NCBI GenBank assembly: GCA_964551175.1
Contig: CAZKBZ010000002.1
Location: 2,110 to 66,109, forward strand
DNA: 64,000 nucleotides
Source: an uncultured Desulfobulbus sp.
GTDB lineage: Bacteria > Desulfobacterota > Desulfobulbia > Desulfobulbales > Desulfobulbaceae
Reading direction: 5' to 3'
The notes beneath the pieces were generated by a model. It saw only the letters and a list, made by a program, of their open reading frames with translations, was not told the DNA's origin and did not search any database. The position numbers and the translations under genes were made by a program. This document shows positions 3,912 through 43,245 of this stretch, piece after piece (position 1 is the first letter of the stretch; each line of letters begins with the position of its first letter).

Positions 3912-5264
3912 ATGAATCCACAAAAGCACGATCCTGTTCCTTTGGCCGAGCGGATGCGTCCGTCAAAACTTGCTGATTTTGTCGGCCAGGAACACCTGGT
4001 GGGCAAAGGAAGGATCTTACATGAACTCATCGCCCGGGACCGGATCCCCTCCCTGCTGCTCTGGGGACCACCCGGATCCGGCAAAACGACCCTGGCAACC
4101 ATACTGGCAAACTCCATTCATGCTGATTTTGTCTTCTTTTCAGCTGTTCTGTCCGGTGTAAAGGAGATCAGGAAAATCGTCACGCAGGCTGAACAGAAAC
4201 AGGCAACAGCGGACGTACAAACCATTTTGTTTGTTGACGAGATCCACCGTTTCAATAAAAGTCAGCAGGATGCATTTTTGCCCCATGTGGAAACAGGACT
4301 GCTGACCCTGATCGGGGCAACCACGGAAAATCCTTCTTTTGAAGTCATCGCCCCTCTGCTGTCCCGCTGCCAGGTTCTGCTTCTCCATCCCCTTGACTCT
4401 GAAGACATCAAAAAAATTCTGCAACGGGCACTGCGAGACAATGATGGACTGGCTGGAGAGGGGCTGGAAATCGAGGATCAGGCACTGGAAATGCTGGCAA
4501 AGGGCGTGGACGGGGATTGCAGGCGGGCACTCAACTGCCTGGAAACAGCCTCAATACTTGTACAAAAAAACAGTGGCAACAAGCCCCTTATCATCACCGG
4601 AGAACTGGTCCGCGAGGCCATGCAGGAACGAAGCTTACGTTATGATCAGACAGGTGAGGAACATTACAACCTGATCTCGGCCCTGCATAAGAGCCTGCGC
4701 GACAGTGACCCGGATGGAGCATGTTACTGGCTGGGACGGATGCTTGCCGGCGGGGAAGACCCGCTTTACATCGCCCGCCGGCTGATCCGTTTTGCCAGCG
4801 AAGACATCGGTATCAGTGATCCCTGGGCGCTTGAGGTGGCAATCAGCTGCCGCCAGGCCTATCATATGCTGGGTTCTCCGGAAGGAGAGCTTGCCCTGTA
4901 CCAGGCTACAACCTATCTTGCCACTGCTCCCAAGAGTAATGCTCTCTATATGATGGAGAAAAAAGTCAACAAAGAGATCAGGCGCTCAGGCTCCCTGGAG
5001 GTTCCCCTGCACCTGCGGAATGCTCCGACAAAGTTGATGAAAAAAATCGGTTATGGAAAAAACTACCAGTATGCCCATGACAGCCGGGACGGACTGGTTG
5101 ATCAGGAGCATTTGCCCGATGAACTTTCAGGTACACAGTTCTATTATCCCACGGATCGGGGCTATGAGGCTGTTGTCCGCGATCGATTGATTCGCTGGCG
5201 AAAAATCCTACAACAACGGGTACGAAAACATGAAGATAACAAACAGAAAAAAAACAACTCTTAA
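3912..5264 (+). CDS. rarA: Replication-associated recombination protein A (AAA+ ATPase MgsA/RarA)
   Basis: Walker A LWGPPGSGKTTLA, Walker B ILFVDEIHRFNK, and a C-terminal MgsA-type domain (HYNLISALHKSLRDSDPDGACYWLGRML). Confidence 0.9.
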   Translation: MNPQKHDPVPLAERMRPSKLADFVGQEHLVGKGRILHELIARDRIPSLLLWGPPGSGKTTLATILANSIHADFVFFSAVLSGVKEIRKIVTQAEQKQATADVQTILFVDEIHRFNKSQQDAFLPHVETGLLTLIGATTENPSFEVIAPLLSRCQVLLLHPLDSEDIKKILQRALRDNDGLAGEGLEIEDQALEMLAKGVDGDCRRALNCLETASILVQKNSGNKPLIITGELVREAMQERSLRYDQTGEEHYNLISALHKSLRDSDPDGACYWLGRMLAGGEDPLYIARRLIRFASEDIGISDPWALEVAISCRQAYHMLGSPEGELALYQATTYLATAPKSNALYMMEKKVNKEIRRSGSLEVPLHLRNAPTKLMKKIGYGKNYQYAHDSRDGLVDQEHLPDELSGTQFYYPTDRGYEAVVRDRLIRWRKILQQRVRKHEDNKQKKNNS

Positions 5265-6810
5265 GCTGCCGGCAGCAGTTCTGCTGCTGTTACTGAGCAT
5301 GGCACATCCGCTGCAGGCGGGTGAATTTCTACTCTTTTACGCAAATGATGTTCTGGGCGAAACAGAGCCCTGTGGCTGAAAGTCCAGCCAGCTGGGCGGT
5401 CTGTCCAGAAAAGCGTATCAGATAAAAAACATAGCGAGTCAGGAAAAACTTCCCTACCTGTTTGTTGACAGCGGGGCGCTGCTCTTTAAACAAAAAAACA
5501 TCCGGCCCGGGATGCAGGAACAGGAAAAAGTCACTGCCCGGGGAATTGCCAGAGCCATGCAGACCATGAACTGCAGGGCCGTCTCCATTGCTGCGCAGGA
5601 TCTGGCCGGCGGGCTTGATCTGCTTAAACACATTCAGGACGAACAAAAACTGAACTGGCTGTCCATGAACCTGGTTGACAAAAATACCAGCCAGCCTATT
5701 TTTGCCCCATTTCTTGACACTGAAATCGGCGATACAACCATTACAATCCTGGGACTCACCGATGAACAGGCTGCTCAGGGAAAAGATGAGAACTACACCA
5801 TCCTGCCCTGGCAGGAGGTATTGCCCGAGATTGTTAAAGAAATGGACTCAAGGACGGACATGATCATCCTGCTTTCCAGCTACCCTGAAGAGGTCAACAG
5901 GGAGATTGGACGGACAGTTAAAGGTATCGACCTGATCCTTGAATCAGGTCACGGTGGATCCAATCTTGCTCCGCACAGGGTGGAAGACACACTGATTGCA
6001 AGGGTTGGGGCCCGGGGAAAATATATCGGCATGATGCGGATTAACTGGACTGAAGCCGGGAAATGGGGACGGAATCTGTCCGAGCAGTTACGTGCTGAAC
6101 AAAACCGGCTGGACAGGATAAACTGGCAGATCGGTCGCATGCAAAAACGGTCCCCTGAAAAAGACCTGCAGACAGACAGGCGCTACCAGCGGTTACTGGC
6201 AACCAGAGAAAAATCCATTCAAAAAATTGCAGAATTAAAGAAGAGAAAAAAACTGGCAACCGGAGAGCCGTGCAGCTTCAGCAACCGCTTTATCGGCCTG
6301 AAATCTTCCCTGCCCGAAGACAAAGAGATACAGGCCATTGTTGACCAGACCACCCGGGAGGTCAACAGGCTCAACCGCAACCGCATGCGCAACAGCACCA
6401 AGCAGTCCCATCCCTCACTGCAGACAATGGCCGGTTGGCCACGGTGCCAGAAATGTCATCCACTGCAGACAGCATTCTGGCAGACAACAGACCATGCAGA
6501 TGCACTGAAGACCCTGGAACAAGACAACCAGCAGTTTAACGAAGAGTGTCTGCTCTGCCATGTGACCCTGCCCTATTATGACGCTGCCAGGGTCAAATCT
6601 GAAAAACTGCTTCTGCAACTGCCCGGTTCCCTGAAAACCGTGGGGTGCGAGTCCTGTCATGGACCGGGAGCGGTCCACAGTGAACAGCCGGAATCAACTC
6701 TTCTTGTTAAGCCTGAGCAAAGGATCTGCACAGGTTGCCACACTCCGGACCATGACGACAATTTTGTCTTTGGTGACAAGATAGGCAGGGTTCGCTGCCC
6801 CAGGGGATAG
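5230..6810 (+). CDS. Periplasmic tetrahaem c-type cytochrome with metallophosphoesterase-like N-domain; proposed selenoprotein (UGA 5377-5379 read as Sec50)
   Basis: The frame of the 5512..6810 ORF stays open upstream to ATG 5230, with TGA 5377-5379 as the only stop. The upstream part encodes a Sec signal peptide, MKITNRKKTTLKLPAAVLLLLLSMAHPLQA. There are four CxxCH sites (CQKCH, CLLCH, CESCH, CTGCH). The TGA sits in GETEPCG-TGA-KSSQLGGL. Confidence 0.6.
5392..5408 (+). promoter_or_regulatory. SECIS-like hairpin downstream of UGA 5377
   Basis: CUGGGC[GGUCU]GUCCAG forms a 6-bp stem (one G-U pair) with a GGUCU apical loop. Counting the U of UGA as +1, the loop G and U fall at +23/+24, the same positions as in the E. 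coli fdhF SECIS as I recall it. Confidence 0.45.
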
Positions 6811-6812
6811 AA

Positions 6813-6848
6813 GACCACCTTGTAAAACAGCAATCTTGCAAGGTGGTC
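6813..6848 (+). terminator. Perfect 10-bp inverted repeat just after the cytochrome stop codon
   Basis: GACCACCTTG (6813-6822) pairs with CAAGGTGGTC (6839-6848) around a 16-nt loop. No U-tract follows on the plus strand, so terminator function is uncertain. Confidence 0.35.
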
Positions 6849-6913
6849 AAAAGAGGAAAAAAAGGGAAAGAAAGCCGGTAAGAAGACCGGAAACAACTCC
6901 ATCTTCTTACCGG
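6849..6913 (-). terminator. Rho-independent terminator of the BI-1 family gene
   Basis: Perfect 11-bp stem: CCGGTAAGAAG (6875-6885) pairs with CTTCTTACCGG (6903-6913). On the minus strand it is followed by a T-rich run (complement of 6849-6874), 13 nt after the stop at 6926. Confidence 0.55.
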
Positions 6914-18921: not shown

Positions 18922-19671
18922 TTACCGGACGGGTTCCGAATCCGGCCTGTTTTTCACGACCCTGGCCGGGATGCCCATGCAGATGCTATAGTCCGGAACA
19001 GACTTTGTTAGAACCGATCCGGCAGCGGCAACAGCTCCCCGGCCAACTTCCACTCCTCCGAGTACCGTTACTCTGCCTCCGAGCCAGACGTCATCGGCCA
19101 GTTTGACACCATTATCAAACAGTATTCCCTGTTTCCGGATGGGTATGCCACGAAGCTGAACATTATAGCTCCCTCCTCCGACAATAAAACATTGCTGGCC
19201 AATAATGTTGTCTCTACCGATCACCACAGGGCAGTCATGGGTTGACTGAATAATCGTCTGAGCGTTAATACCGGTATCTTCGCCGATGGTGATAGTACCT
19301 TCCTTGCACGACAGCATAACGTTATTGGAAAGAATAACATTACTGGCCAGGGAAATAGTTGTCTGCTTGTCTGCACTACGGCCATCCAAGATACAGTATT
19401 CACTGATAACTACCTTTTCACCGAGATGTATGCGGGAAGGATGGCGCAGTACAATACCGCAACCGAACATAACTCCACGTTGGCAGGATCCAAACAGCCG
19501 CGGCCAGAAAATCTTGCGCAACGCCATGCCCAAGGCACCGGGAATAGGGGCAAGACACTGGCACCATTCAAAGTATATCAGGCGGGATAGAGAAGGAGAA
19601 CCAACAACAACCTCTTTATATTTACTAACGGCAGACCCTTGTCCGGTTATTGCTTTGTGTGTTTTTTTCAT
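18922..19671 (-). CDS. Hexapeptide-repeat (left-handed beta-helix) acyl/acetyltransferase
   Basis: Imperfect hexapeptide repeats run through the C-terminal 170 aa (VWLGGRVTVLGGVEVGRGAVAAAGSVL). Confidence 0.8.
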   Translation of the reverse strand: MKKTHKAITGQGSAVSKYKEVVVGSPSLSRLIYFEWCQCLAPIPGALGMALRKIFWPRLFGSCQRGVMFGCGIVLRHPSRIHLGEKVVISEYCILDGRSADKQTTISLASNVILSNNVMLSCKEGTITIGEDTGINAQTIIQSTHDCPVVIGRDNIIGQQCFIVGGGSYNVQLRGIPIRKQGILFDNGVKLADDVWLGGRVTVLGGVEVGRGAVAAAGSVLTKSVPDYSICMGIPARVVKNRPDSEPVR

Positions 19672-21098
19672 GGATTGGCCTGGTTCTCTTTCTCTACTTT
19701 ATAGAATTTTTCCCAACGGGCATCCTTCAGTTCATCAACCCTAACGGGACGTGCATCCTTACAGCTGCTGCCAACACGGACCTCTGGCTGCATAACATAC
19801 TGATGGCTGGGCAGATGGAGTACAATATATTTATTGTTGTTTAACAAATCTTCCTGCTCGTAGAAATGAACAGCATTAACAAATTCCTGCATTCCTGCAA
19901 TAGGCTTGATCCAGCCATATTTGGGATACTTAATGTTGACCGCTGCAACAATTCCGACAAAAAAGAAAACAAAAACAATTACAACCGGTCCTTTTGGTTG
20001 GTATAATATACAGATACGATCAACAACATAGAGAAGAAACAGCAGCCAGAAAAAAACAGATACCAACCGATGGCAGTCACTGGTAAACAAATATTGAGGA
20101 AATTTAACACTTAAAAAAAAAAGTGCCAACGAACTGAAAATCAGGGAAAATATAATAAGAATATTTTTAGAATAGCAGATGTCTCTGCGAAAAAAAAACA
20201 GTGAAAACACTACTGCTACTAAGACTACAGCTCCCCAGTACAAGGCAACATGATCAAACAACCTCAGGAAGGCAACTTTTTCTACCATTACCTGAAAATA
20301 ACGCTTAACAACCCATAACTTCAGCTGGGTCAACTTTGAGGTCTGAGCTTCAACCGTGCAGAAATAAATTAGTGTTGACATGATACCAAGCAGAATCAAC
20401 ATATTTTTTTTATGGTTACGATAAAGCAGAATATGTAATAATCCTGCCGGAATCAATAATACGGAATAAGGTCCAGACCATGGCAAAAGAACAAACAGCA
20501 TGCCCATGGACACTGTTCCGAACCTGGTTCGCGGATCCGGAAAGAACAAAAGGCAGAATAGCACCAGAACACCCGTGTACATAATATAGATCAGGGTGTT
20601 ATAATAATAGATATGATTAAGACCGCACAAACCAAGAACTGTCGGGCCGATGAGAAGAACAACTCTGCTGCGCATGAGACCTGAAAAAAAGATGCAGGAT
20701 GCGGCTGCAACAGCTACGCAAAAGCCCCACCACTGATACGCGTATGGTTGCATCCTGACATCCAGCCGGGAAAACAGCCATGAAAAAAAATTCGCTGGTA
20801 CAGTTAAATAATTCTGTCCTATATGACTGGAAAAAACAGAGGCCAGGTCCCGTGAATGTCCGTAATAATAACTGAAAAGCAGGGAATCCTCCATATATAA
20901 ACCCGGTGTTTTCAAGGTCTGCCATGAACGGATAAGGTTAATCACAACAAGAAAAAAAACTCCGGCCACGGCCCAGGTAAAGTTCGTTTCTTTCTTCCCG
21001 GAAGGATAACCGGTAGATGATTGGTACTCCAGCGAATGGAGCTGAAACTTTCCAGTATGTGTCATGTCAATCAGATTAGAGGAAAAGAAGGAACTCAA
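19668..21098 (-). CDS. Uncharacterised polytopic membrane protein (paralogue of 25377..26768)
   Basis: About 11-12 TM helices. It aligns clearly with the 25377 ORF (PGLYMEDSLLFSYYYG / PGMYMEDATHYFNIYYG; SRLDVRMQPYAY / SKLDVRMVTWAY; GLNHIYYYNTL / SMNHIYYYTSL; C-terminal VRVGS..DAR). Confidence 0.6.
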   Translation of the reverse strand: MSSFFSSNLIDMTHTGKFQLHSLEYQSSTGYPSGKKETNFTWAVAGVFFLVVINLIRSWQTLKTPGLYMEDSLLFSYYYGHSRDLASVFSSHIGQNYLTVPANFFSWLFSRLDVRMQPYAYQWWGFCVAVAAASCIFFSGLMRSRVVLLIGPTVLGLCGLNHIYYYNTLIYIMYTGVLVLFCLLFFPDPRTRFGTVSMGMLFVLLPWSGPYSVLLIPAGLLHILLYRNHKKNMLILLGIMSTLIYFCTVEAQTSKLTQLKLWVVKRYFQVMVEKVAFLRLFDHVALYWGAVVLVAVVFSLFFFRRDICYSKNILIIFSLIFSSLALFFLSVKFPQYLFTSDCHRLVSVFFWLLFLLYVVDRICILYQPKGPVVIVFVFFFVGIVAAVNIKYPKYGWIKPIAGMQEFVNAVHFYEQEDLLNNNKYIVLHLPSHQYVMQPEVRVGSSCKDARPVRVDELKDARWEKFYKVEKENQANP

Positions 21099-21331: not shown

Positions 21332-22363
21332 TCAAGTCTTGCACAGCGCCTTTTTTCGCTCAAGTAAAAAAAGAAAAAACATTGATAACGAAAAGATAAC
21401 AAAAAGCAACAGCATGTAACTTTCATGCAACACCAAGTAAGCTAAACAGATTAAAGGATAAAGCAAAAATCGGACCAACATTTTTACAATATCATGACGA
21501 TCAATAAAGTCGGCTATTGGAGGTGAGTAACGATAGTACATCTGTACAAATAGTTTGCCTGGCCTATTGGTCAGCAAACATTGGTCCCGAAACTTCCTTA
21601 ACACCATTACCTGGGGTTGAAAAGCGGTACCAAAAGCGGCTGTGGCGATAAAACAGCCACCACCGCCGCCACCGCCGCCACCGCCGCCACCGCCATAGGG
21701 TAACGCAGCTGCAAAACCCTGGGCCAATACGCCAGCCCCCTCATTATTGGGATGAACACCATCCACGCTCAATGCCTTCCAGTTGCCGATAACGCTCCCG
21801 TAGGAATCAACAAAAGGAACTGCCTTTTCCTGCCCCAACCCAATGATGGGAGGATTATAACTATCAGGAATAGCCGAACCGAGTCCGTCGTTACGATGAT
21901 TAGGTGTTATTGTGGAGAGTATCGGTATGGCTCCGGAAGCCATACTTTTGTCAAGCATTCTAGCTAAATTAAATTTCACGGTTGAAGGAGAGTATCCCCA
22001 AAAGGCATCATTTGCCCCTTCCATAATAATTATGTACTGAGGGTGATTTGATTGCAGAACACCATCTATTCTACCTACTCCTCCCCTGGTTGTTTCACCG
22101 TCAAGTCCCTGGTTTACGACATTAACACCATCGCCGACCATTCCCTGTAAATGAGCAGAATATGGTATCTGGCCATGGCCGGTTGTAATAGAGTCACCGA
22201 ATGCAACAACAGTGTCGGCATCTGACATTTTTGGAAGGACAAGCAATAAAATAAAACCGACCCCAACTAAACGATGAATTTTTTTTATAACTGAATAAAA
22301 CACAGCTACCTCTTTACTGTAATTGTATCTGGCCTTCAAAGCACAGAAGATTGGAAAAAACAC
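21332..22363 (-). CDS. Secreted SGNH/GDSL esterase with Gly13 linker and CFI-box-type C-terminal membrane domain
   Basis: SGNH blocks FGDSIT, GLDGETT, MEGANDA and DGVHPN. These are followed by 13 consecutive Gly, then CFIATAAFG...[33 protein letters not shown] plus terminal hydrophobic helices. The start codon is uncertain. Confidence 0.75.
21656..21694 (-). repeat. Simple GGC/GGT codon repeat encoding Gly13
   Basis: Thirteen consecutive GCC/ACC triplets on the plus strand. These are Gly codons on the minus strand inside the SGNH gene. Confidence 0.95.
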
Positions 22364-23363: not shown

Positions 23364-25232
23364 TCAGGTACCATATTTTGCAATCTCATACAAGCCGACA
23401 AAAACAAAATTATAAACACTCAACAAAAACATTACCAATATCAGAAAATGAAAAACCGGGCGAATCAAACACCTTTCCACATGACAGATATAAACTGAAC
23501 ACATTGCAAGAATCGGTAAAAAATAGCGCCCTTGGGCTTGGAAATCAACAGTCCAGGCATGATACATGGCCACTACCACCAGAGCCAGGCTGACGGAAAG
23601 AGTGATCATCAACAACAACACACCGGATAGACCTCCTCTGACCAGGACTGGAAGTATTATTGCAGCAAGTAAAAACAGCCCGAATATTCGCACAATATCG
23701 TAATAAATTGAAGGTCCGGAGATAGAAACATAACCATATACACCAAACGATGTTCTAAACGATTTTTCTCCCCACCGATCTTTCTGAAGGAAATGCTTCA
23801 GGGTTGTCCCCCTGTCCTTCATTTGCAAATATCCGTGTTTTAAAGGCAATGGAGTACTTGGTTTATACATATCAAGGGCAAGATGCTCCCGAGCCTCGAA
23901 CAACTTTTCTCCTCTGTCAAAGCCATTGACGTAATAATCTACTCCTCTGGACAGACCAAAAACAGAAAAAGCCACCAGGAGAACTGAACTCAAACGAAAC
24001 AAAAACTTGGCGTCAGCTGTCCAATCAGAAAAAACCACCTTCCACAGGCAAAACAAAAACAAAAACACATAGAAAAAATAAAAATTCTTTTTCAGCAGCA
24101 ACATCACGCCAAGCAGAAGACCTGTCAGCAGAAAATAATACCAGGTTTTCCTTGTCATGCCTTTACGAAGCAGGATATTCAACATGGAATCAGCAACAGC
24201 AACCTGGTAGCCGACAAGCAGAATAACAAACAAGGCAAAGGCGTCAGAATTAAAATAACTGAAAACATACCAGGTCTGTGGCGAGATGAGGACCGGCAAC
24301 AAAACAAGGCGAAACTCCATTTTTTTCAGTGCACCCAGCAGTAGGATGGAGAAAAGAAAAATATTAAAAAAACGAAGGATCAGAAAAGAAGGCTGGTACA
24401 GAGGTTCGGCAAGCTTCAAAAATTTACCGGCCAAAAAATAGACAATCTCACCTGAATGCAACCTGGAAACACCATAATTGCTGTATGTGTGAAGAATCTC
24501 CGGATCTTCAATTCTTGGGGGCAGGGTATGATTCTGATAATACTCGGCAGCATAGATATGAACAAACTCATCCGGATGCTTATTGTACTTACTTACTTCA
24601 GCCATAACAATGATCAAGGCAAAAACAAACACCAGGAGACAGTTGACATATAGATACTGCTCTGTGATTCCGGAAAAAACCCATGCCAGCAGATAAACGG
24701 AAATAAATATGCAGCCCATCCTAACCGTTTCCGACAGCAATGTGGAAGTCCTTGTTATTTCCGGCAACTGGAGTAGTAGTTGCGGATCCCGTCCTTCCGG
24801 GATGACGACGAGGCCCGTGTCATCAAGGGTCAACTTCCGTATCCCTTCGATCTCGACCAACTGGTCTAAGCCTGATTTGCTGTCGTATTTAAAAGTCGGA
24901 TAGCCCTCCTGTTTAATCACTAAAGATTTTAAAGTTACCCGTGCCGGCCGTTCTGAGGTATCAATTCGTATGCTTGACACCTTATCTAAATTACAGATAT
25001 GAAACCTGTAGATATTCAAACCTGGTCTAATTCTGATACGAACCATATTTTCCTCAGAGTAAAATCCGGATTCATTCAGCCAGTACACTTTCAGGACTGT
25101 CTGCTTATCTGTTTCCAGATCCAACTCGATAACCGCTTTCCGGACCAGTAACCCGTGATACAGTATGGACAAAAGAACCCCGGCCAACAGCAAGGCAATA
25201 TATTTTTTTATCTCAAATTTCTGTTCCATCAT
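23364..25232 (-). CDS. Large polytopic membrane protein, possible GT-C-type glycosyltransferase or polymerase, with N-terminal extracytoplasmic domain
   Basis: One TM helix, then a ~125-aa soluble domain, then about 12 TM helices. An acidic loop, KHPDEFVHIYAAEYY, follows the first helix of the polytopic block and resembles GT-C loop-1 motifs. No cytoplasmic catalytic domain is apparent. Confidence 0.5.
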   Translation of the reverse strand: MMEQKFEIKKYIALLLAGVLLSILYHGLLVRKAVIELDLETDKQTVLKVYWLNESGFYSEENMVRIRIRPGLNIYRFHICNLDKVSSIRIDTSERPARVTLKSLVIKQEGYPTFKYDSKSGLDQLVEIEGIRKLTLDDTGLVVIPEGRDPQLLLQLPEITRTSTLLSETVRMGCIFISVYLLAWVFSGITEQYLYVNCLLVFVFALIIVMAEVSKYNKHPDEFVHIYAAEYYQNHTLPPRIEDPEILHTYSNYGVSRLHSGEIVYFLAGKFLKLAEPLYQPSFLILRFFNIFLFSILLLGALKKMEFRLVLLPVLISPQTWYVFSYFNSDAFALFVILLVGYQVAVADSMLNILLRKGMTRKTWYYFLLTGLLLGVMLLLKKNFYFFYVFLFLFCLWKVVFSDWTADAKFLFRLSSVLLVAFSVFGLSRGVDYYVNGFDRGEKLFEAREHLALDMYKPSTPLPLKHGYLQMKDRGTTLKHFLQKDRWGEKSFRTSFGVYGYVSISGPSIYYDIVRIFGLFLLAAIILPVLVRGGLSGVLLLMITLSVSLALVVVAMYHAWTVDFQAQGRYFLPILAMCSVYICHVERCLIRPVFHFLILVMFLLSVYNFVFVGLYEIAKYGT

Positions 25233-25376: not shown

Positions 25377-26768
25377 ATGAAACAACCTTCAGACTTCTTT
25401 CAATTTTCCCGGCCGAATTTTCTGTCCAGAGAATTGTATCCGATCCCCGACAAGAAGGATCTGCAAATACAGCTCCCCTTGATCGGAGGAGCTGTAATCC
25501 TGTATCTGCTGACTCTGGCCTTTCGTTCCTGGCCAAATCTGATTCACCCCGGAATGTATATGGAAGATGCCACCCATTACTTTAATATATACTATGGAGG
25601 TAATCGCGACCTATCATTTATACTGCAACACCCCAATGGATACTATAATATCTTGAACAATCTGGTCGCCTGGCTTTCCTCAAAACTCGACGTTCGGATG
25701 GTGACATGGGCATACCATCTCTTTTCCCTAACTACCGGTATTGTATGCGCTGTTCTCTTCCTCTTTACCGGATTGATAAAAAATCGCCTGCTGCTGCTTA
25801 TCACCCCGATAGTCTTGGGCCTTTCCAGCATGAACCATATTTACTACTACACCTCTCTCACCTTTCAAATGTATAATGTTGTTATTATACTGCTCATCCT
25901 CCTGTTTCTGCCCGGACCGGAATCATTTTTCAGTCTGGTTTGCAAAACAGCCCTGGCTACTCTTCTTATCTGGTCGGGTCCATACTCCGTAGTTGCTGTA
26001 CCTGTCTCCCTCGTCAGCATGGTCATGTTCAAAGGAAAATACAGAAATATATGGCTTATGTGGGTCATCATATGTTCTATCGGTTACTCCCTTTCCGTTC
26101 AAGGAGGGATGATACGTTTAGCGACGTTCAGTGATGCGGGTGCCAGACATTCAATGATTTCAACCCTGTTTACAAAAATTTTCTTCATGGATATGCTGGG
26201 ATCACTCTCAACGTATAAGATGAGTATCTTGTTGTTGATCATTGCGGCCATTTTTCTTTTTCTAAGAAAAAATTCCACCTATCTGAAAATTTCAATATTA
26301 CTGTTTGGTATTATCATCGGATCACTGGCACCCCTGTTTCTAAGCGTCAAGTACCTGCTTTATCAGCAAGTCTTTCCCTGTCACATCTATATCGCTCAAT
26401 TCTTCTGGCTGGTCTTTGTTCTCTATACGATCGATCAATTCATGCCGGTACTGAAAAAAACAGCACATTTTTTCCCCCCTGCAGTTGTCGCTGCCATCCT
26501 CTGCTTTGTCCTTGCGGACAATCTCAAACATCCGGCAAAAGGAAAACGAGAAATTATGACAAATTTACCGGATTTTCTTGCAACCATACACAGAGTCGAA
26601 CAGCTATCTCTTATTGATAACAACCAATACGTAGTGTTGAAAACCAACAACATTATTCCCAAGGGCATGCATCCCATGGTACGGGTTGGCAGTCTGCGCC
26701 ATGATGCTCGTCGTCTGCGCCGATCTGAAGTAAAAATATCAAAGGGGAAAGAGTTTATCATCGACTGA
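25377..26768 (+). CDS. Uncharacterised polytopic membrane protein (paralogue of 19668..21098)
   Basis: See 19668..21098. The topology and conserved blocks match. It is transcribed divergently from 23364..25232. Confidence 0.6.
   Translation: MKQPSDFFQFSRPNFLSRELYPIPDKKDLQIQLPLIGGAVILYLLTLAFRSWPNLIHPGMYMEDATHYFNIYYGGNRDLSFILQHPNGYYNILNNLVAWLSSKLDVRMVTWAYHLFSLTTGIVCAVLFLFTGLIKNRLLLLITPIVLGLSSMNHIYYYTSLTFQMYNVVIILLILLFLPGPESFFSLVCKTALATLLIWSGPYSVVAVPVSLVSMVMFKGKYRNIWLMWVIICSIGYSLSVQGGMIRLATFSDAGARHSMISTLFTKIFFMDMLGSLSTYKMSILLLIIAAIFLFLRKNSTYLKISILLFGIIIGSLAPLFLSVKYLLYQQVFPCHIYIAQFFWLVFVLYTIDQFMPVLKKTAHFFPPAVVAAILCFVLADNLKHPAKGKREIMTNLPDFLATIHRVEQLSLIDNNQYVVLKTNNIIPKGMHPMVRVGSLRHDARRLRRSEVKISKGKEFIID

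Positions 26769-28756: not shown

Positions 28757-28757
<1 letters not shown>
28509..28757 (-). CDS. Small hypothetical protein (82 aa)
   Basis: Its ATG overlaps the upstream TAA (TAATG), which suggests translational coupling. No recognisable motif. Confidence 0.25.
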
Positions 28758-30823
<2,066 letters not shown>

Positions 30824-30838
30824 TTACACTGAAAGAGC

Positions 30839-33223
30839 TTATGTGGTTGCGGCCAGTCGGAGACGACAATATGCCAGAAAGGCAACAATATAAATCAGTA
30901 TCGCTGCGATAAGAGTTACACGGAATCCTGAACAAATCGACAACAGAACACTGCTTAACCCACCTATAACAGTGAACAAACCATTCATTGCCCATGCCCA
31001 GGCTATGGCCCCCTGCGGCTGATCTTTGATGGTCATAATACCAAGAGGGAAAGGCATACCCATGAAAAAACCCACCGGAAAAATCAAAACAATTGCGGCA
31101 ACAATACGAACAAGTGTTGGAGACTGCAGAAACAACTCAAAGTAAGCGGGATAAACCAGCAACAGGAGAAGATTAGTCAACAGGACTCCTGTGAAGGGGA
31201 TCAACCAGCGGTTTCCGGGTGATATTTTTATTTTTTCCGACACAACACTCCCGATACCGGCAGCGAGCAGAAGGGCAAACACCACGACTGAGTAGGTGTA
31301 CAGGGGATAGCCGACCAGTTTCATAAAGATCTGGATAAAAACCAGTTCAACAATAATAAACCCGGCTCCCAGGCAGGAAAAATAGATAAGGGAGGCTACT
31401 TTCCCCGGCCAAGATGCCTTGCCAGCTGTAGAAAAAAACATTGGTATAAGTATGAAGAGCATTGTGAAGACAAGGGAGGCAAAACCGGTAACTATCAAAT
31501 GAATTACATCAGATGGAATCCAGCTCTTCTTCAGCTGAGAGTTAATTAATGACGCAGTGGAATAATTAAGATAATTTTCCGGATCGGCTTCAAGCCTGTC
31601 AAAGGATTTTCGCAGGAAATTAAAATATGGTTTGTTATCTGTGGACGCTGCAAGATGATATTTAGCGTTGCGAATCGTATCGCGGGAAAGCTCACCTGTA
31701 AAAAATTCAGCTGACAACATTCCATCTTCAGGGTTAAGGGGATTTACCACAGGTTTCATTACTGAAGGAAAATAGGACATCAACTCATCGAGTTCTTTCT
31801 CTGTCCATGGCTCCATCTTAATGAGCAAGGTAGGCAGGTTATCCTGGAATCCTTTTTTCACTGCCTCCACTACAACAATATATTTATGAAAATCTGTTCT
31901 GCCAAGTTCCTTCCATGCCAGAGCAGCAGTGGCAACCATTCGGGGATAGACATGATGGTTGATATGCAGGATACCGTCTTTTCCCAGATGAGTGAAGTAC
32001 TCTTTATAGGCTTCCGCTGTCTGCAGATACGTTGTCGCCATGGCTCCGGTGCCTGCAGCAATACTGGAGCTGGTATGATTGCTGTACATCTGGATGATAT
32101 CATATTTCTTGTTACTTGAACGCAGGAAGCTGCGACCTTCTCCGCGCAGTGCGTTTACCTTGGGATGATTAAAGATATTTCCGTTATAGTCAGCATAATT
32201 GGTCTTACCGATTTTAATTACATAGCCAACCAGTTCCACCGCATCCACATGTGCCGCGCCGAACATCAAAGCGGCCTTGGTTTCCGAGCCACCGGCAGCG
32301 CCGATAATAAGAACTTGCTGATTACTGTCTTTTTTCAGAGCATGGGATACCCAAACATTACTGCTGTAAAAATGATATCCCCGGTGATTAAGGACGTCTG
32401 TACGAAGCTGAACAAAGTTACCGTCAAAAGGAATAATAAAAGAAGACTGAGATCCACCGTCATAGGCTATATGTTTCATTTTTCCATAATCAATAACGTC
32501 TATTTTAGAGATTGGATCCCAATGGGATAACTCTATAAGACCTCGATCTCTGGCTCCTTTTACACCACGCTTATCAATATGATCCTTGAATTCAAAATAG
32601 CCGTCGTTGAAAAAAGGAACAGCAGCAAGTACCACAGCCAGTACCACAGTGACCGCAGTCCACTTGCTGTCAGAGGAGAAACAGCCGGATGCAAGCAGTC
32701 CGAAAGCACCGACAAGAAAAATGACCCCTCCCGGACCAATGGGTGGTAAAAAAGGTATAAGCATCAGACAGCCCACAGCAGCACCTGCCAAGTCCCAGCA
32801 ATAAAGCCTCTGGATTCTGTCGGCATAAACGGAAAATACGGTAGTAAATGCAAGACCAGCCAAAAAAAAGGGGGTAATAAGAAACAGGTACATAATAAGA
32901 AATAATACTGTCCCTTTCAACGGTGACTTATACAATACATTGAAATCAAAGGGTAACCAGTTCAAAGCTGGAAGGATTGTCAGTGCAAAAACAGCAAACA
33001 GAAAAGCCAGAATAGAGAGATATCTCCTGGGGTCTGTTTCTTTGTCCAATGGCCGTAGGGAAGAATAAACACCGGAAAGTCCAAAACAGAACATTGCCAG
33101 AGTGATGACCATGTATGCCATATTGGGATACCATATTACATCAAATACCCGAACCAAAATCAACTCCAGCATCAGTGTGGTCAGAGCCATGAACATCAGG
33201 CCTATACTCATTTTCACCATCAA
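30839..33223 (-). CDS. Membrane-embedded spermidine-synthase-like (aminopropyl/methyltransferase-fold) protein
   Basis: About 7 N-terminal TM helices, then a central SpeE-like Rossmann domain (VLIIGAAGGSETKAALMFGAAHVDAVELV ... YDIIQMYSNH), then about 6 C-terminal TM helices. Confidence 0.7.
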   Translation of the reverse strand: MMVKMSIGLMFMALTTLMLELILVRVFDVIWYPNMAYMVITLAMFCFGLSGVYSSLRPLDKETDPRRYLSILAFLFAVFALTILPALNWLPFDFNVLYKSPLKGTVLFLIMYLFLITPFFLAGLAFTTVFSVYADRIQRLYCWDLAGAAVGCLMLIPFLPPIGPGGVIFLVGAFGLLASGCFSSDSKWTAVTVVLAVVLAAVPFFNDGYFEFKDHIDKRGVKGARDRGLIELSHWDPISKIDVIDYGKMKHIAYDGGSQSSFIIPFDGNFVQLRTDVLNHRGYHFYSSNVWVSHALKKDSNQQVLIIGAAGGSETKAALMFGAAHVDAVELVGYVIKIGKTNYADYNGNIFNHPKVNALRGEGRSFLRSSNKKYDIIQMYSNHTSSSIAAGTGAMATTYLQTAEAYKEYFTHLGKDGILHINHHVYPRMVATAALAWKELGRTDFHKYIVVVEAVKKGFQDNLPTLLIKMEPWTEKELDELMSYFPSVMKPVVNPLNPEDGMLSAEFFTGELSRDTIRNAKYHLAASTDNKPYFNFLRKSFDRLEADPENYLNYSTASLINSQLKKSWIPSDVIHLIVTGFASLVFTMLFILIPMFFSTAGKASWPGKVASLIYFSCLGAGFIIVELVFIQIFMKLVGYPLYTYSVVVFALLLAAGIGSVVSEKIKISPGNRWLIPFTGVLLTNLLLLLVYPAYFELFLQSPTLVRIVAAIVLIFPVGFFMGMPFPLGIMTIKDQPQGAIAWAWAMNGLFTVIGGLSSVLLSICSGFRVTLIAAILIYIVAFLAYCRLRLAATT

Positions 33224-35678: not shown

Positions 35679-37502
35679 TTACATACTGCATAAAGAAACC
35701 GACTCTACCATAACAGAGGTAACTGTACGGCCTTTCTTTTTCCATCTCAATACCAATTCATGTATCATTGAGCGAGGTGGTATAGATACATACAACGTAT
35801 TCAGGACACTGTCCACTTGCTCTTCAGTCCAAAAAATCTCTTTTCCGCCAAACTTTCGGATTTTGACCTCAAGGCTTCCACTGCCTTGTGAGGCAAGACG
35901 AATTCGTGCAATATAACTACTGTTATCTTTTTTAGCCAGTCCGGGTAGGAAAATTTTCGTATCTTCAATTGAGACCTTTATGTTTTTTTTATCAATTTCC
36001 TTTCTGCTCTGATCCTGTTTTGCCGATAATTCAAATTGTGATGCCAAGTACTCTTGTCGTATGGCAGAAGGATTCTCCGGTGGCTGCCGCAGAATAAACA
36101 TGTTGAGTATTTCCTGAATAACAAAGGTCGGCTTTTCATAAGCAAAAATCTGAGTGGGAAAGTTAACGATTGTTCTATAATTCCAGACCTCCTTGGCATT
36201 TGCGCTAAAAAAATAAACACACTTTTCCAGGAAAGAATCACCCAACAGCAAAATCGATTGTATCGGAGCAGCAGGATTACGAACCATCCGGATTGACATA
36301 GTCTCTCCCTGACTATTACTGATCATACCCTTCGGTGGATAGACGTCATGGATTCCCTCAGATGGCAGGTCTTCAAGTTTGTACAGTGGTGTTCCAGGCT
36401 TGGGTACCAAAGTGAGATAATGTTCATTCTTATGCAGGCGAACCGGCAAACCGATCATATTCATGAAACGATGATGAGCCCAGTGTTTGTCGATTTTCAC
36501 GGTGAAGTCATCAAGTGTTACCGGAGTCAAAGGATATTCCGGGAAAAAAGTCTGCATCTTCCTGATGACCTCCTGATATGCCACCAGGGAGCCGTAATAA
36601 TTCCAGTGAAAATCTGTCCGATAAAAAAGCAGAGGATATTCACGGATCCTTTTTTCCTTGAGCATGGCAGGCAGCAGATCCACAAAATGAATATTGGCAT
36701 TATCCTTCAGGTATGCCGACAACTGATCATAACGCCGCTGCCCTTTTTTCAGGTTCTGCAAAGATTGAGGAAGAAATTCTGGATATACCAGAGCCTTTGT
36801 CGGAGCCAGAACAAATACATACTCGATACCTTGTTTTTTTAGCCAGTAACTGCGTTCTTCAAGGGTTAGCTTCCATTTCCAGAGATCCCATTCAGAAAAA
36901 GGGAACATACCCATGTAATCTGCAATGTTATCAAATTTCTCCACGACTCCTTTTTCAACTTTTCGGGCACCATATCCTTCAAAATAAAATCCTTTTTTAC
37001 CTAAAGCTACCGTGGTATTGGGAGAGACCTTGAAGAGGTAGATCTTCACCATGGCATTGAGATGAATATATGCCTTAGACAGGATACTGTTATCCTGCCA
37101 GTATTTTTCATAGGTTGCGGGGAACTGCCTGACAAGTGTCAAGGTAGACGCAGATGTTTTTTCCTGAACCCTTTGGAGATAGGCGATTACTTTGGAAAAA
37201 CTTCTGCCTGCAAAAGAGGTATGTGAAACCAGTGGATAAAACAATAAACCGCAAAACAGGGTTATCAGGAGTAAATGAGCCGGGCGGACATTCTTTTCAG
37301 ACGTCAGCCGGAATCCGATACGCAGACCGAGAAAGACAGCAGCCAGCAGAAGCAAAGCAACTCTGATAAGTAGACTTTGATAGGCACCGGATTCGAGGTC
37401 AGCAGCCAGGCTCTGCCGGTTTGCTCCCCCTATAAATGCAGCCAACATCGTCATGATGCCTGCTTGCAGCAAAATCTTTCTAAGTGTTCCTTTTATCATC
37501 AA
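35679..37502 (-). CDS. AlgJ/AlgX-like SGNH-type polysaccharide O-acetyltransferase with C-terminal extension
   Basis: N-terminal TM helices, a DxHW-type motif in YRTDFHWN, and GDS in LLLGDSFLEK. It overlaps the upstream MBOAT gene by 4 nt. Confidence 0.65.
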   Translation of the reverse strand: MMIKGTLRKILLQAGIMTMLAAFIGGANRQSLAADLESGAYQSLLIRVALLLLAAVFLGLRIGFRLTSEKNVRPAHLLLITLFCGLLFYPLVSHTSFAGRSFSKVIAYLQRVQEKTSASTLTLVRQFPATYEKYWQDNSILSKAYIHLNAMVKIYLFKVSPNTTVALGKKGFYFEGYGARKVEKGVVEKFDNIADYMGMFPFSEWDLWKWKLTLEERSYWLKKQGIEYVFVLAPTKALVYPEFLPQSLQNLKKGQRRYDQLSAYLKDNANIHFVDLLPAMLKEKRIREYPLLFYRTDFHWNYYGSLVAYQEVIRKMQTFFPEYPLTPVTLDDFTVKIDKHWAHHRFMNMIGLPVRLHKNEHYLTLVPKPGTPLYKLEDLPSEGIHDVYPPKGMISNSQGETMSIRMVRNPAAPIQSILLLGDSFLEKCVYFFSANAKEVWNYRTIVNFPTQIFAYEKPTFVIQEILNMFILRQPPENPSAIRQEYLASQFELSAKQDQSRKEIDKKNIKVSIEDTKIFLPGLAKKDNSSYIARIRLASQGSGSLEVKIRKFGGKEIFWTEEQVDSVLNTLYVSIPPRSMIHELVLRWKKKGRTVTSVMVESVSLCSM

Positions 37503-38962
37503 AATCTGAAATAAAGAAAAGGATTATAGGAACCTCCCATGACACTGGCTACAGAATATGACAGTATGAAACCAAGCCCGACTACCTGCAGTGTTGCAGC
37601 TACAGGTCCTCCAATAAAAACTGAATCCTGCACATCATCAGGTGGACCAATTTCATCAACGATCTTCCCTGTCAGTATCCTGAACAGTGGCATCGCACCA
37701 ATCAGTCCTGCGATCAGAGTGAAGGTAAATTCATTGTTTATATGAAGAAAAATCTGCGAATTATAAATCGGTGCTGTTCCGGGTGTAAACATTGCCCGCA
37801 GAAAAGCCAGAGCAAAAGAAAAACTGTCCGACCTGAAAACCACCCAGCCGCAAAGAACCACAAACATGGCGTAGAGGTGGCGAACAGGCGTGGGTAGGAT
37901 CTGTAAGACTTTAGTCCCTAGACCGGTTCGCTCCAGTATAAGAAAAAAACCGTGATACAGGCCCCAAACAATAAAAGTCCAGCTGGCACCATGCCACAGA
38001 CCACAGAGAAAAAATACGGTAATCAGATTGAAATATGTTCTTAGCACGCTACCCCTGCTACCGCCCAGCGGTATATAGAGATAATCCCGAAACCAGGTTG
38101 ACAGAGAAATATGCCAGCGACGCCAGAACTCCCTGATTGATCTGGAGATATAAGGATAATTGAAGTTTTCCAGAAAATGAAACCCGAACATACGGCCAAG
38201 GCCAATAGCCATATCGGAATAGCCGGAAAAATCATAATATATCTGCAGTGAATAGGATACCGCACCAAGCCAGGCCAAGGTTGCCGGAAGCCTGTCCGGA
38301 GGCAGGGAAAAAATGTAGTCAGCAGTTTGACCAAGAACATTGGCAATCAATACTTTCTTGCCAAGACCGATAATGAAACGACGGATACCGCTGGCCATGT
38401 CGGCAGTCGTAGTTATCCTGTTGCTGATCTGCTTGGCGATATCATGATACCGGACAATAGGACCGGCAATGAGCTGAGGAAACAAGGAAATGTAAAGTGC
38501 TATATTAATTGGATTTTTCTGGACTTTGGACTGTCTGCGGTACAGATCGATCACATAGGACATAGCCTGAAAGGTAAAAAATGAAATACCAATGGGCAGG
38601 TGAATATGCGGGAAACTGACAGGGTCAAGATCCAGGCGCTGAAGCAGGCCGTTCAGATTGGCAACTAGGAAATTAGCATATTTAAAAAAAATCAACAGCA
38701 GCAGATTGATCGCAACTGCGCCTACAAGGGCGGGCTTTCCGGTTTTCCCTTGCTGCTGGGCAAGGTCAATGAACAGGCCGAAGCAGTAGTTGACCAGAAT
38801 TGAAACCAGCATCAGCAAGACATAAATGGTTTCCCCCCAGGCGTAAAAAACCAGGCTTGAAGTCAGCAGGATAACATTACGCATCTTCCTGCCGGCAAGA
38901 AAATAAACAAGCAGGACAATGGGCAAAAAGAAAAAAAGAAAAAAGGTGGAGCTGAAAACCAT
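37499..38962 (-). CDS. MBOAT-family O-acyltransferase (AlgI/DltB-like)
   Basis: Polytopic protein with the conserved MBOAT region FWRRWHISLSTWFRDYLYIPLGGSR and a downstream His (LWHGASW). Confidence 0.9.
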   Translation of the reverse strand: MVFSSTFFLFFFLPIVLLVYFLAGRKMRNVILLTSSLVFYAWGETIYVLLMLVSILVNYCFGLFIDLAQQQGKTGKPALVGAVAINLLLLIFFKYANFLVANLNGLLQRLDLDPVSFPHIHLPIGISFFTFQAMSYVIDLYRRQSKVQKNPINIALYISLFPQLIAGPIVRYHDIAKQISNRITTTADMASGIRRFIIGLGKKVLIANVLGQTADYIFSLPPDRLPATLAWLGAVSYSLQIYYDFSGYSDMAIGLGRMFGFHFLENFNYPYISRSIREFWRRWHISLSTWFRDYLYIPLGGSRGSVLRTYFNLITVFFLCGLWHGASWTFIVWGLYHGFFLILERTGLGTKVLQILPTPVRHLYAMFVVLCGWVVFRSDSFSFALAFLRAMFTPGTAPIYNSQIFLHINNEFTFTLIAGLIGAMPLFRILTGKIVDEIGPPDDVQDSVFIGGPVAATLQVVGLGFILSYSVASVMGGSYNPFLYFRF

Positions 38963-42063: not shown

Positions 42064-43245
42064 ATGAAAACACTTGTCGTTGCGCCGCAGCCTTTTTTCT
42101 CTCCCCGGGGCACACCTTTCTCAGTATATTACAGGACGCTGATCAGTTCCGAGCTCGGGGAAAAAATAGATTTTCTGACCTATGGTCAGGGCCAGGATGT
42201 TATCATTCCGGGTGTACGATTTTTCAGAACCCCGGCCTTTACTTTTTTGGGTACTATAAAAATCGGGCCATCAATACTCAAGCTGTTCCATGATGTTTTT
42301 ATTTTTTTCCGGATGGTTGAGCTGCTACTTCGATATCGGTATGATTCTGTTCATGCCCATGAGGAGGCTGTGTTCCTGTCTATTCTCCTCAAGCCCATTT
42401 TCAGGTTCAAACTGATTTACGACATGCATTCCAGCCTGCCGCAGCAGTTATCCAACTTTAACTTTACCAGGTTAAAAATACTGATCAAAACTTTCACCTG
42501 GCTTGAAAACAAAAGCCTTGCAGCAAGTGATGCCATTATCACCATCTGTCCGGATCTGTATAACTACGTGGAATCCGTGCTTCCCGGAAATGACAAGAAT
42601 TTTCTCATCGAAAACTCTATTTTTGAGCCTGTTCGGCTGGCCAACGCTTCTGCTGCAAATTCTGCAAATGAACAGAGCCCCCCTGTGACCATTCCAGCTT
42701 CCTTTACCTGCCGGGTAGTATATGCCGGCACACTGGAAAGTTATCAGGGTATAGATATCCTCGTTCAGTCCATTCCCTACGTAATCAAACATAATAAACA
42801 TATAGGATTTATCATTGTCGGAGGAACAGAAGAACAGGTTAATAAATATAAACAAATGAGTGAACACTACGGTGCAAAGCGACATGTCATCTTCACCGGA
42901 CGTGTTTCACAGGCTCAGGCCAGGGCTTATACGGAACAGGCGACTGTTCTGGTCTCTCCGAGAAGCAGCGGCACCAACACTCCTTTAAAAATTTATGAAC
43001 AGCTTGCCTCTGGTACGCCACTTGTTGCTACTTCGATTTACTCTCATACCCAGGTGTTAACTTCAGACGTAGCTTTTTTGGTGAAACCGGACCCGACGGA
43101 TATGGCAAATGGCATTTTGCAGGCAATTGATCCGAGCGGTGAAAGCCAACGAAAAGCCGAGAATGCAAAAAAACTCTACAACAGCCACTACTCGAGAAAA
43201 GCGTACGTTACTAAACTACTCAACGTCTTAAACCATGTAGCCTGA
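42064..43245 (+). CDS. GT4 (GT-B fold) glycosyltransferase
   Basis: C-terminal half VYAGTLESYQGID ... GTNTPLKIYEQLASGTPLVATSI, an E-x7-E-type region. Confidence 0.8.
   Translation: MKTLVVAPQPFFSPRGTPFSVYYRTLISSELGEKIDFLTYGQGQDVIIPGVRFFRTPAFTFLGTIKIGPSILKLFHDVFIFFRMVELLLRYRYDSVHAHEEAVFLSILLKPIFRFKLIYDMHSSLPQQLSNFNFTRLKILIKTFTWLENKSLAASDAIITICPDLYNYVESVLPGNDKNFLIENSIFEPVRLANASAANSANEQSPPVTIPASFTCRVVYAGTLESYQGIDILVQSIPYVIKHNKHIGFIIVGGTEEQVNKYKQMSEHYGAKRHVIFTGRVSQAQARAYTEQATVLVSPRSSGTNTPLKIYEQLASGTPLVATSIYSHTQVLTSDVAFLVKPDPTDMANGILQAIDPSGESQRKAENAKKLYNSHYSRKAYVTKLLNVLNHVA

Follow-up and report, generated by a model that had tools for sequence, protein, structure and literature searches.

Background

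A family of selenoproteins has been catalogued as 'COG0737, UshA-like, CxU' by Zhang and Gladyshev in 2008 (PMC2398784), and it is found again in reviews of 2022 and 2026 (PMC9312934, PMC13188914). It is represented in NCBIfam by the profile NF041198 (UshA_like_PCGU, 'UshA-like (seleno)protein'), and homologues in Ca. Electrothrix, Ca. Electronema, Desulfolithobacter and Desulfobulbaceae already bear that name at NCBI. A second profile, NF049981 (UshA-like (seleno)protein family 2), describes proteins with a UshA-like scaffold and a selenocysteine (Sec) near an N-terminal motif. The Thermodesulfobacteriota are, according to a review, among the lineages richest in selenoproteins. In the literature searched we found no report of experimental selenium incorporation in any UshA-like PCGU member, and nothing useful on selenoproteins in cable bacteria or Desulfobulbaceae, or on a function of the PCGU family. 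Three further systems serve below as references: the periplasmic UshA, 5'-nucleotidase and SoxB enzymes (COG0737), the tetrahaem cytochrome c554 of Nitrosomonas europaea (1bvb/1ft5), which is a free-standing carrier of the hydroxylamine oxidation pathway, and the SECIS element of E. coli fdhF, whose sequence we verified in E. coli for the comparison of registers.

Results

One reading frame and its family

In the window (by which we mean the whole 64-kb stretch of DNA that was analysed), the ORF listing has two entries in one common frame, 5230..5379 (49 aa) and 5512..6810 (432 aa). Starting from ATG 5230, frame 1 is open down to the stop codon at 6808-6810 and its sole internal stop is the TGA at 5377-5379, as an earlier note on this DNA had read it; translation of the frame also returned the context GETEPCG-TGA-KSSQLGGLSRKA exactly as that note had written it, and the 35 nt which it had described as shared with the 3' end of rarA are there (rarA is 3912..5264). 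When the TGA is read as Sec (U50, in the motif PCGU), the complete coding sequence 5230..6810 (+ strand, like all the features of this gene given below; stop codon included) encodes 526 aa, and we hold it very probable that this is a single exported member of the catalogued UshA-like (seleno)protein family with Sec at UGA 5377-5379. The gene-caller ORF 5512..6810, which lacks a signal peptide and is 100% identical to a public call of 432 aa (P0001), is an annotation artefact. The same split into an orphan ORF of 47-49 aa and a truncated cytochrome ORF was seen in every close relative examined, hence the arrangement is not a product of chance. The Sec form of the UshA-like protein also keeps a constant place after rarA in Desulfobulbales and cable bacteria.

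The read-through protein matches NF041198 with 614.9 bits (cut-off 275, E = 1.1e-184), and the match is full-length, residues 22-514 being aligned with positions 13-518 of the 519 of the profile. The PCG[U/C] motif, the position of Sec and the order of the domains (signal peptide, UshA-like domain, tetrahaem module) are all those of the family, from which the protein does not differ in any essential way; the window copy is publicly called in its truncated form, and in ND-V-x-G it shows a Leu in place of the His or Arg of its nearest relatives. NF049981 stands further apart: the protein reaches only 42.6 bits against it (cut-off 140), and that profile has CxxU instead of CxU, 262 positions and no cytochrome module. 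To the author of the earlier note this family was not familiar as a described selenoprotein; the novelty thereby implied is not upheld, NF041198 and the three publications cited above having the family already. As the UshA-like CxU family has been catalogued since 2008, the finding at 5230-6810 is correct but not new.

A selenocysteine/cysteine column

Among the matches listed, the codon aligned with the TGA of the window is TGA at 21 loci, the window included, and TGT or TGC at about 45 loci. The 21 TGA loci are made of the 20 loci which were scored for the hairpin described below and of L001, the window's own sequence in another assembly; they come from Desulfobulbia, cable bacteria, Cognaticolwellia, Myxococcota, Oligoflexia and Eisenbacteria. 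The genome scan for homologue loci gave mostly distant Cys forms among the matches listed, the window's own genome not being one of them, while the metagenome scan gave 0 loci with a single protein as query and 5 loci with an alignment as query. The motif PCG[U/C], which follows shortly after the ND-x-x-G strand, is almost invariant, being present in essentially all of the ~65 aligned loci; the homologues thus do carry either Cys or an in-frame TGA at this column, the very point on which the earlier note had proposed to check them. All of the full-length protein homologues (8/8) have Cys in the column of U50 (GETEPCGC), and the residue aligned to U50 in homologues is always Cys and never Trp. 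PCGC is present in Ca. Electronema, Myxococcota, Planctomycetota, Verrucomicrobiota, Scalindua and others.

A side observation concerns the cable bacteria: the marine Ca. Electrothrix have the Sec form, and the single homologue seen in the freshwater Ca. Electronema has Cys.

A hairpin that follows the TGA

A SECIS apical hairpin, CUGGGC-GGUCU-GUCCAG, with a stem of 6 bp and a loop of 5 nt, occupies 5392..5408, with 12 nt between it and the UGA. Counted from the U of UGA, GGUCUG takes nucleotides 22-27, so that G23 and U24 fall at the exact positions which they have in the SECIS of E. coli fdhF; the distance from UGA to hairpin is equal in the two elements, G22-G23-U24-C25-U26-G27 are identical, and GGU CUG are codons +7/+8 in both. 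The window element differs from that of fdhF by the sequence of its stem, which is of 6 bp and has no bulged nucleotide of the U17 type, and by the conserved peptide LGGLS(R/K) which it encodes. The pattern is unique in the 64-kb window, where 0.01 occurrences are expected by chance.

On average 5.75 of the 6 pairs of the hairpin are kept at the TGA loci (20 loci scored), against 2.53 of 6 at the Cys loci (p = 1.9e-9). The pairs covary, CG/UA/UG and UA/GC being the types met across loci, and 94.4% of the cells are paired versus 31-63% in slid controls. The folding of the 71-nt region around the hairpin is not significantly better than that of shuffles (z = -1.26), the z-scores of whole segments do not separate TGA loci (-0.56) from Cys loci (-0.33), and a relaxed Rfam scan of 5340-5460 gave noise only. 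Only a score restricted to the specific 17-nt hairpin brings out the signal; it is comparative data, and not thermodynamics, that support the hairpin.

Sec machinery, and an unlikely read-through by other means

We looked for the Sec machinery around the gene. The 64-kb window contains none of selA, selB, selD and tRNA-Sec: ARAGORN found no tRNA in it, Rfam at gathering thresholds gave no match in it, and the NCBIfam annotation of its 44 ORFs gave no sel genes. No tRNA-Sec was found in 16 related loci either. A scan of the window for frames joined by TGA yielded no other selenoprotein gene; 13083-11994-10555 (a glycosyltransferase, then a sugar phosphotransferase) and 63979-62044-60665 (a NeuB-like gene, then an unknown gene) were rejected as candidates, each being a pair of adjacent genes in the same frame.

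This absence of sel genes and tRNA-Sec from the window would suit a UGA read through without Sec, by near-cognate insertion of Trp or Cys or under a reassigned code. We regard this as improbable. The code is not reassigned, as TGA ends 23 of the 44 genes of the window and is the commonest stop codon there; the hairpin has a loop of the SelB-binding type, GGUCU, at the spacing of fdhF; a near-cognate Trp is at odds with the constant Cys of the homologues; and curators list the family among the selenoproteins.

Export and haem attachment

The first 30 codons of the gene (5230..5319) encode a Sec-type signal peptide, MKITNRKKTTLKLPAAVLLLLLSMAHPLQA, with a predicted cleavage before GEF; both the peptide and its cleavage site were judged by eye from the n/h/c layout of MKITNRKKTTLKLPAAVLLLLLSMAHPLQA|GEF. 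All close relatives have an equivalent hydrophobic N-terminus ahead of the TGA, every one examined having its signal peptide there and nowhere else, and the full-length Cys homologues start with such an N-terminus too.

The other end of the protein is a tetrahaem module resembling cytochrome c554 (6430..6807), identified by Pfam and profile matches. The four CxxCH haem c sites already counted in that note are all present (C406/C409/H410, C440/C443/H444, C473/C476/H477 and C500/C503/H504) and invariant in homologues. Pfam Cytochrome_C554 (PF13435) matches residues 406-478 above its cut-off (2.6e-11), Cytochrome_C7 matches as well, and the PDB profiles matched are those of cytochrome c554 1bvb (4.9e-11) and of the multihaem protein 6i5b. 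The spacing of the four CxxCH agrees with that of the Nitrosomonas cytochrome; the window module, unlike that free-standing carrier, is C-terminal and fused to a UshA-like domain.

In cytochrome c maturation, a CxxCH protein devoid of a signal peptide gets no haem attached in the periplasm. The product of 5230-6810 has what is expected of a c-type cytochrome, CxxCH sites together with an export signal, and in the tetrahaem protein the existence of this signal depends on read-through of the UGA.

Selection on both sides of the TGA

Upstream of the TGA, pN is 0.06-0.18 for a pS of 0.49-0.82, and between the TGA and ATG 5512 pN is 0.09-0.27 for a pS of 0.37-0.64, which indicates purifying selection on both stretches. 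The second stretch is conserved at the protein level and hence is translated.

These results bear on a TGA which would be a genuine stop, separating the gene of an exported 49-aa peptide from that of a 432-aa cytochrome starting at ATG 5512. Such is the default output of the gene caller, with the window's commonest stop codon at the boundary, and we give it very little credence: the four-CxxCH protein would lack a signal peptide and hence any access to periplasmic haem attachment, the 44 codons from the TGA to ATG 5512 are under purifying selection and the family HMM is matched from residue 22, the homologues with a Cys codon are continuous, and the called lengths of homologues vary from 400 to 542 aa, as is typical of arbitrary downstream starts. 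One may also suppose that a TGY Cys codon was misread in sequencing or assembly, or was mutated to TGA with loss of function (a pseudogene); TGA is one base away from TGT/TGC, and the assembly behind the window is of metagenome type. This is hardly believable, since an independent assembly of the window sequence has the identical TGA (L001, Logan SRR15988951), 19 further loci of different organisms have it too, the SECIS hairpin is kept only where the TGA is present, and the ORF that follows is both intact and conserved.

The UGA as Sec in place of Cys, within a C-G-U motif, was the central proposal of the earlier note; the Sec/Cys pair, the TGA-specific SECIS of fdhF type, the two-sided purifying selection and the curated HMM all uphold it.

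A UshA-like domain that has lost most metal ligands

Between the signal peptide and the haems, the protein has a domain of the UshA/5'-nucleotidase (calcineurin) type with degenerate metal motifs (approximately 5320..6090), recognised by profile and fold matches. The profiles matched are 5'-nucleotidase 2z1a (2.9e-12), SoxB 2wdc (2e-9) and also 1ush. As a structural proxy we used the AlphaFold model (pLDDT 86.8) of a Cys homologue, P0023, which is 51% identical to the window protein; its top Foldseek matches in the PDB are 5'-nucleotidases (E ~1e-15). The model also predicts a long helical linker (approximately 6090..6270), its helices 287-311 and 322-343 corresponding to the window sequence LSEQLRAEQNRLDRINWQIGRMQ...IAELKKRKK.

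The N-terminal fold, the periplasmic location and a conserved GG-x-x-R after the first beta-strand motif are common to UshA, SoxB and the window protein. However, the alignment to 2z1a shows that the metal-ligand motifs D-x-H, G-D, G-N-H-E and the later His are not conserved: their counterparts in the window are ND-V-L, DSG-A, AAQD and LLSS, where the first Asp alone is kept. Compared with UshA and SoxB, the His of ND-x-H is replaced by L, R, Q or H, the Asp of GD by A, S or G, GNHE by AAQD (in the window) or GAHD, and the His of LSH by S. The C-terminal substrate-binding domain of 5'-nucleotidases gives way to the helical linker and the tetrahaem cytochrome, and a Cys-Gly-Sec loop is found here which the UshA/SoxB enzymes do not have. 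With its ligands mostly replaced, its C-terminal domain swapped and this loop added, the protein is a structural relative of UshA and SoxB and not a functional member of their group; judging from the loss of most dimetal ligands, its N-terminal domain is probably not a phosphoesterase.

Discussion

If the gene works as a selenoprotein gene, translation would begin at ATG 5230, which lies within rarA, 35 nt from its end, and the ribosome would place selenocysteine at UGA 5377-5379. SelB with Sec-tRNA(Sec) would be recruited by the hairpin 5392-5408, whose GGUCU loop is in the fdhF register, and in the source organism Sec would then actually be inserted. The product would be exported by the Sec pathway and would have its four haems c attached in the periplasm; its N-terminal domain keeps the 5'-nucleotidase/SoxB fold, deprived of most dimetal ligands. 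The P-C-G-U/C loop comes directly after the first former metal-binding motif (ND-x-H). By analogy, it may form a redox-active selenenylsulfide/thiol-selenol centre, which could swap electrons with the c554-like tetrahaem module; that C-G-U acts in redox chemistry and is coupled to the haems is our inference. One may speculate, with a good deal of doubt, that the family is a periplasmic oxidoreductase of a new type: a dead 5'-nucleotidase/SoxB scaffold would hold a Cys-Gly-Sec centre in electronic contact with four haems, and in Desulfobulbales and cable bacteria the protein might act on a species of sulfur or selenium.

For annotation, the consequence is that the public call, a 432-aa protein without signal peptide beside an orphan ORF of 49 aa, is wrong and should be replaced by one selenoprotein of 526 aa; the same mis-call recurs in most of the homologues inspected. 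No new question is opened by this locus, as the family, its CxU motif and the Sec/Cys distribution were already catalogued. For the biology, it adds one more uncultured member of Desulfobulbales type to a known selenoprotein family.

Reading frame and constraint across the UGA codon

The frame that begins at ATG 5230 is open to the stop codon at 6808-6810, and the TGA at 5377-5379 is the sole stop inside it; the mechanical ORF list cuts this frame in two, 5230..5379 (49 aa) and 5512..6810 (432 aa). Upstream of the TGA, the frame encodes MKITNRKKTTLKLPAAVLLLLLSMAHPLQA|GEF..., whose basic/hydrophobic/AxA-like layout is, judged by eye, that of a Sec signal peptide, and four CxxCH sites lie in the part downstream of the TGA. 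The earlier note had described this split frame, the signal peptide and the haem sites, together with an overlap of 35 nt with the 3' end of rarA (3912..5264), and we found all of them in the window.

TGA terminates 23 of the 44 genes in the window. This means that the code is standard and that the UGA at 5377-5379 is a local recoding event. We compared the window with eight relatives at the codon level: in the 19 codons before the TGA, pN is 0.06-0.18 versus a pS of 0.49-0.82, and in the 30 codons that follow it and precede the annotated ATG 5512, pN is 0.09-0.27 versus a pS of 0.37-0.64. Hence, both flanks evolve as coding sequence.

Selenocysteine and cysteine forms

The protein search returned 1594 homologues. 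Most of the best ones have a called length of 400-485 aa and span no more than 73-90% of the query, which is the truncation seen in the window; one (P0001, 432 aa) is 100% identical to the window's called ORF. The supposition that the UGA stands in place of a Cys is borne out by the alignment, as all eight full-length homologues read GETEPCGC, with the Cys aligned to the TGA. At the DNA level, among the matches listed, 21 loci (counting the window and L001, its own sequence from a Logan assembly) have TGA at the aligned position, and about 45 have TGT or TGC (Myxococcota, Planctomycetota, Verrucomicrobiota, Scalindua, Acidobacteriota and others). The TGA loci include five Desulfobulbia-type genome loci and eight further close relatives, the complete genome of Ca. 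Electrothrix aestuarii among them, while the others are scattered (Cognaticolwellia, an Enterobacterales bin, Myxococcota, Oligoflexia, Eisenbacteria, an unclassified proteobacterium). PCG[U/C] is essentially invariant in the aligned loci, and a signal peptide is encoded in frame upstream of the TGA in every close TGA locus.

Ca. Electrothrix aestuarii, a marine cable bacterium (L088, CP159373.1; L083 and L085 are of the same sequence type), has the Sec form directly after rarA. The one homologue found in the freshwater Ca. Electronema sp. JM (L091) is a Cys (TGC) form with other neighbours, and in L091 and another Cys locus, L093, this form is followed by a gene of 450-455 aa with faint cytochrome-c matches. 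Because of these different settings, the two forms may be paralogues rather than the outcome of a simple Sec-to-Cys switch.

In the 64-kb window we found neither sel genes nor tRNAs, and no further selenoprotein gene. A review counts the Thermodesulfobacteriota among the lineages with the most selenoproteins.

The SECIS hairpin

Twelve nucleotides after the UGA lies a hairpin, CUGGGC-GGUCU-GUCCAG (5392-5408), whose motif is unique in the window (one match, 0.01 expected). We set it against the E. coli fdhF SECIS, whose sequence was verified in 5419 E. coli genomes (TGA CAC GGC CCA TCG GTT GCA GGT CTG CAC). GGU CUG occupies codons +7/+8 in both genes; therefore G22-G23-U24-C25-U26-G27 are identical and the register is shared with fdhF. 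In E. coli, G23 and U24 are contacts of SelB.

In 12 TGA loci, 94.4% of the hairpin cells are paired, versus 31-63% when the partner is slid. In these loci the basal pair is CG, UA or UG and the next one UA or GC; the covariation at the basal pair ties a synonymous Leu codon (CUG/UUG) to the choice between Arg and Lys (AGA/AAA). On average, 20 TGA loci keep 5.75 pairs of the 6-bp stem, versus 2.53 in 30 Cys loci coding for the same peptide, xGG(L/I)xR (Mann-Whitney p = 1.9e-9). Thermodynamic z-scores by themselves are unremarkable, and Rfam has no family matching the hairpin. We consider the selenoprotein reading of 5230-6810 strongly supported; the earlier note had reached it from the raw sequence alone, and rightly.

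At the locus of P0023, the closest full-length Cys form (L092:4150-4200), UUAGGC-GGUCU-GUCCAG is still present after the TGC codon; it retains the SECIS loop and 3' arm, and a single pair is broken in the 5' arm. It resembles a fossil SECIS, one that a recent change from Sec to Cys would have left behind. A Candidatus Eisenbacteria MAG (L028:3148-3200) has TGA at the Sec column and lacks the canonical GGUCU hairpin (3/6 pairs; peptide YGGATR); another GC-rich stem-loop farther downstream may be its SECIS.

Domains and structure

The family profile matches 5'-nucleotidase (2z1a, 2.9e-12), UshA and SoxB over residues ~22-270, and cytochrome c554 and a multihaem protein (6i5b) over residues ~395-505; the Pfam match is limited to the C-terminal Cytochrome_C554/C7 module. 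The AlphaFold model of P0023, 51% identical to the window protein, is confident (pLDDT 86.8, pTM 0.83), and its top PDB matches are 5'-nucleotidases (E ~1e-15). In a residue-level alignment the dimetal ligands of 5'-nucleotidase are mostly gone from the family: ND-x-H has become ND-V-(L/H/R/Q) (ND-V-L in the window), G-D has become SG-(A/S/G) (DSG-A), G-N-H-E has become (A/G)A(Q/H)D (AAQD) and L-S-H has become LSS (LLSS). We therefore do not class the protein as a phosphoesterase. Residue 42 (5353-5355) is Leu in ND-V-L-G, where the nearest relatives have His or Arg; thus the window copy has lost the last remnant of the D-x-H metal motif.

The PCG(U/C) loop comes directly after the first former metal motif. 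The C-G-C/U loop (P0023 residues 44-56, about 43-55 in the window protein) is the sole internal segment of the model with a pLDDT below 50-60, so AlphaFold does not place it confidently; a mobile loop or the absence of a ligand could be the reason. By analogy, our best inference is that PCG(U/C) would form a selenenylsulfide/thiol-selenol redox centre, which might exchange electrons with the four haems.

Genomic surroundings

In the window, the neighbouring genes encode a succinate-semialdehyde dehydrogenase, a response regulator with a GAF domain (its equivalent in relatives also carries a guanylate-cyclase domain) and RarA, then a Bax1-I/YccA-like membrane protein (convergent gene), a ParA-like ATPase and a member of the sulfatase family. 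The closest relatives, Ca. Electrothrix aestuarii included, keep the order Aldedh, GAF regulator, rarA, UshA-like. Of four Sec loci examined, all have rarA directly upstream and three have Bax1-I and ParA downstream, with different genes there in Electrothrix. The overlap with rarA is 35 nt in the window (5230-5264) and 29 nt in two relatives, L087 (4671-4699) and L090 (4680-4708); its conservation suggests that the two genes, though functionally unrelated, are co-transcribed or translationally coupled. No neighbour, in the window or in the relatives examined, suggests a function for the UshA-like gene.

The UshA-like and Bax1-I-like genes converge, and the space between them holds, immediately past the stop codon, a perfect inverted repeat of 10 bp (GACCACCTTG...CAAGGTGGTC, 6812-6849) with a 16-nt loop. 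This repeat is a candidate bidirectional terminator, missed by the consensus scan because its loop exceeds 8 nt.

Farther on lies an exopolysaccharide/glycosylation cluster of ~50 kb (10555-63979) with many family-2 glycosyltransferases, GalE, a multi-domain glycosyltransferase of 1246 aa (52761-56501) and two paralogous XrtA/PEP-CTERM-type asparagine-synthase amidotransferases (39027-40961, minus strand; 43245-45125, plus strand). Also in the cluster are a DltB-like MBOAT protein (37499-38962), a protein with a CFI-box-CTERM domain (21332-22363) and, at 62042-63979, a NeuB-like sialic-acid synthase to which extra sequence is fused. The large ORFs at 19668-21098, 23364-25232, 25377-26768 and 28757-33223 have no NCBIfam match.

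Family identity

When U50 is replaced by C, the protein of 526 residues matches NCBIfam NF041198, "UshA_like_PCGU, UshA-like (seleno)protein", over essentially the whole profile (E = 1.1e-184, 614.9 bits, cut-off 275). Hence a curated model named after the very motif singled out from the sequence already exists. Zhang & Gladyshev 2008 give "COG0737, UshA-like, CxU" in their Table 2, among families described as previously known, and count 76 Sec sequences and 92 Cys homologues for it in GOS data (PMC2398784); reviews of 2022 (PMC9312934) and 2026 (PMC13188914) list "UshA-like protein, NF041198, CxU" with credit to that paper. In our protein search, homologues from Electrothrix, Electronema, Desulfolithobacter and Desulfobulbaceae already bear the NCBI name "UshA-like (seleno)protein". 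The novelty implied by the earlier note thus does not hold: the UshA-like selenoprotein is an already known finding. Our literature searches found no experimental work on the family. What remains is the correction of the annotation, and one more member of the UshA-like (seleno)protein family.
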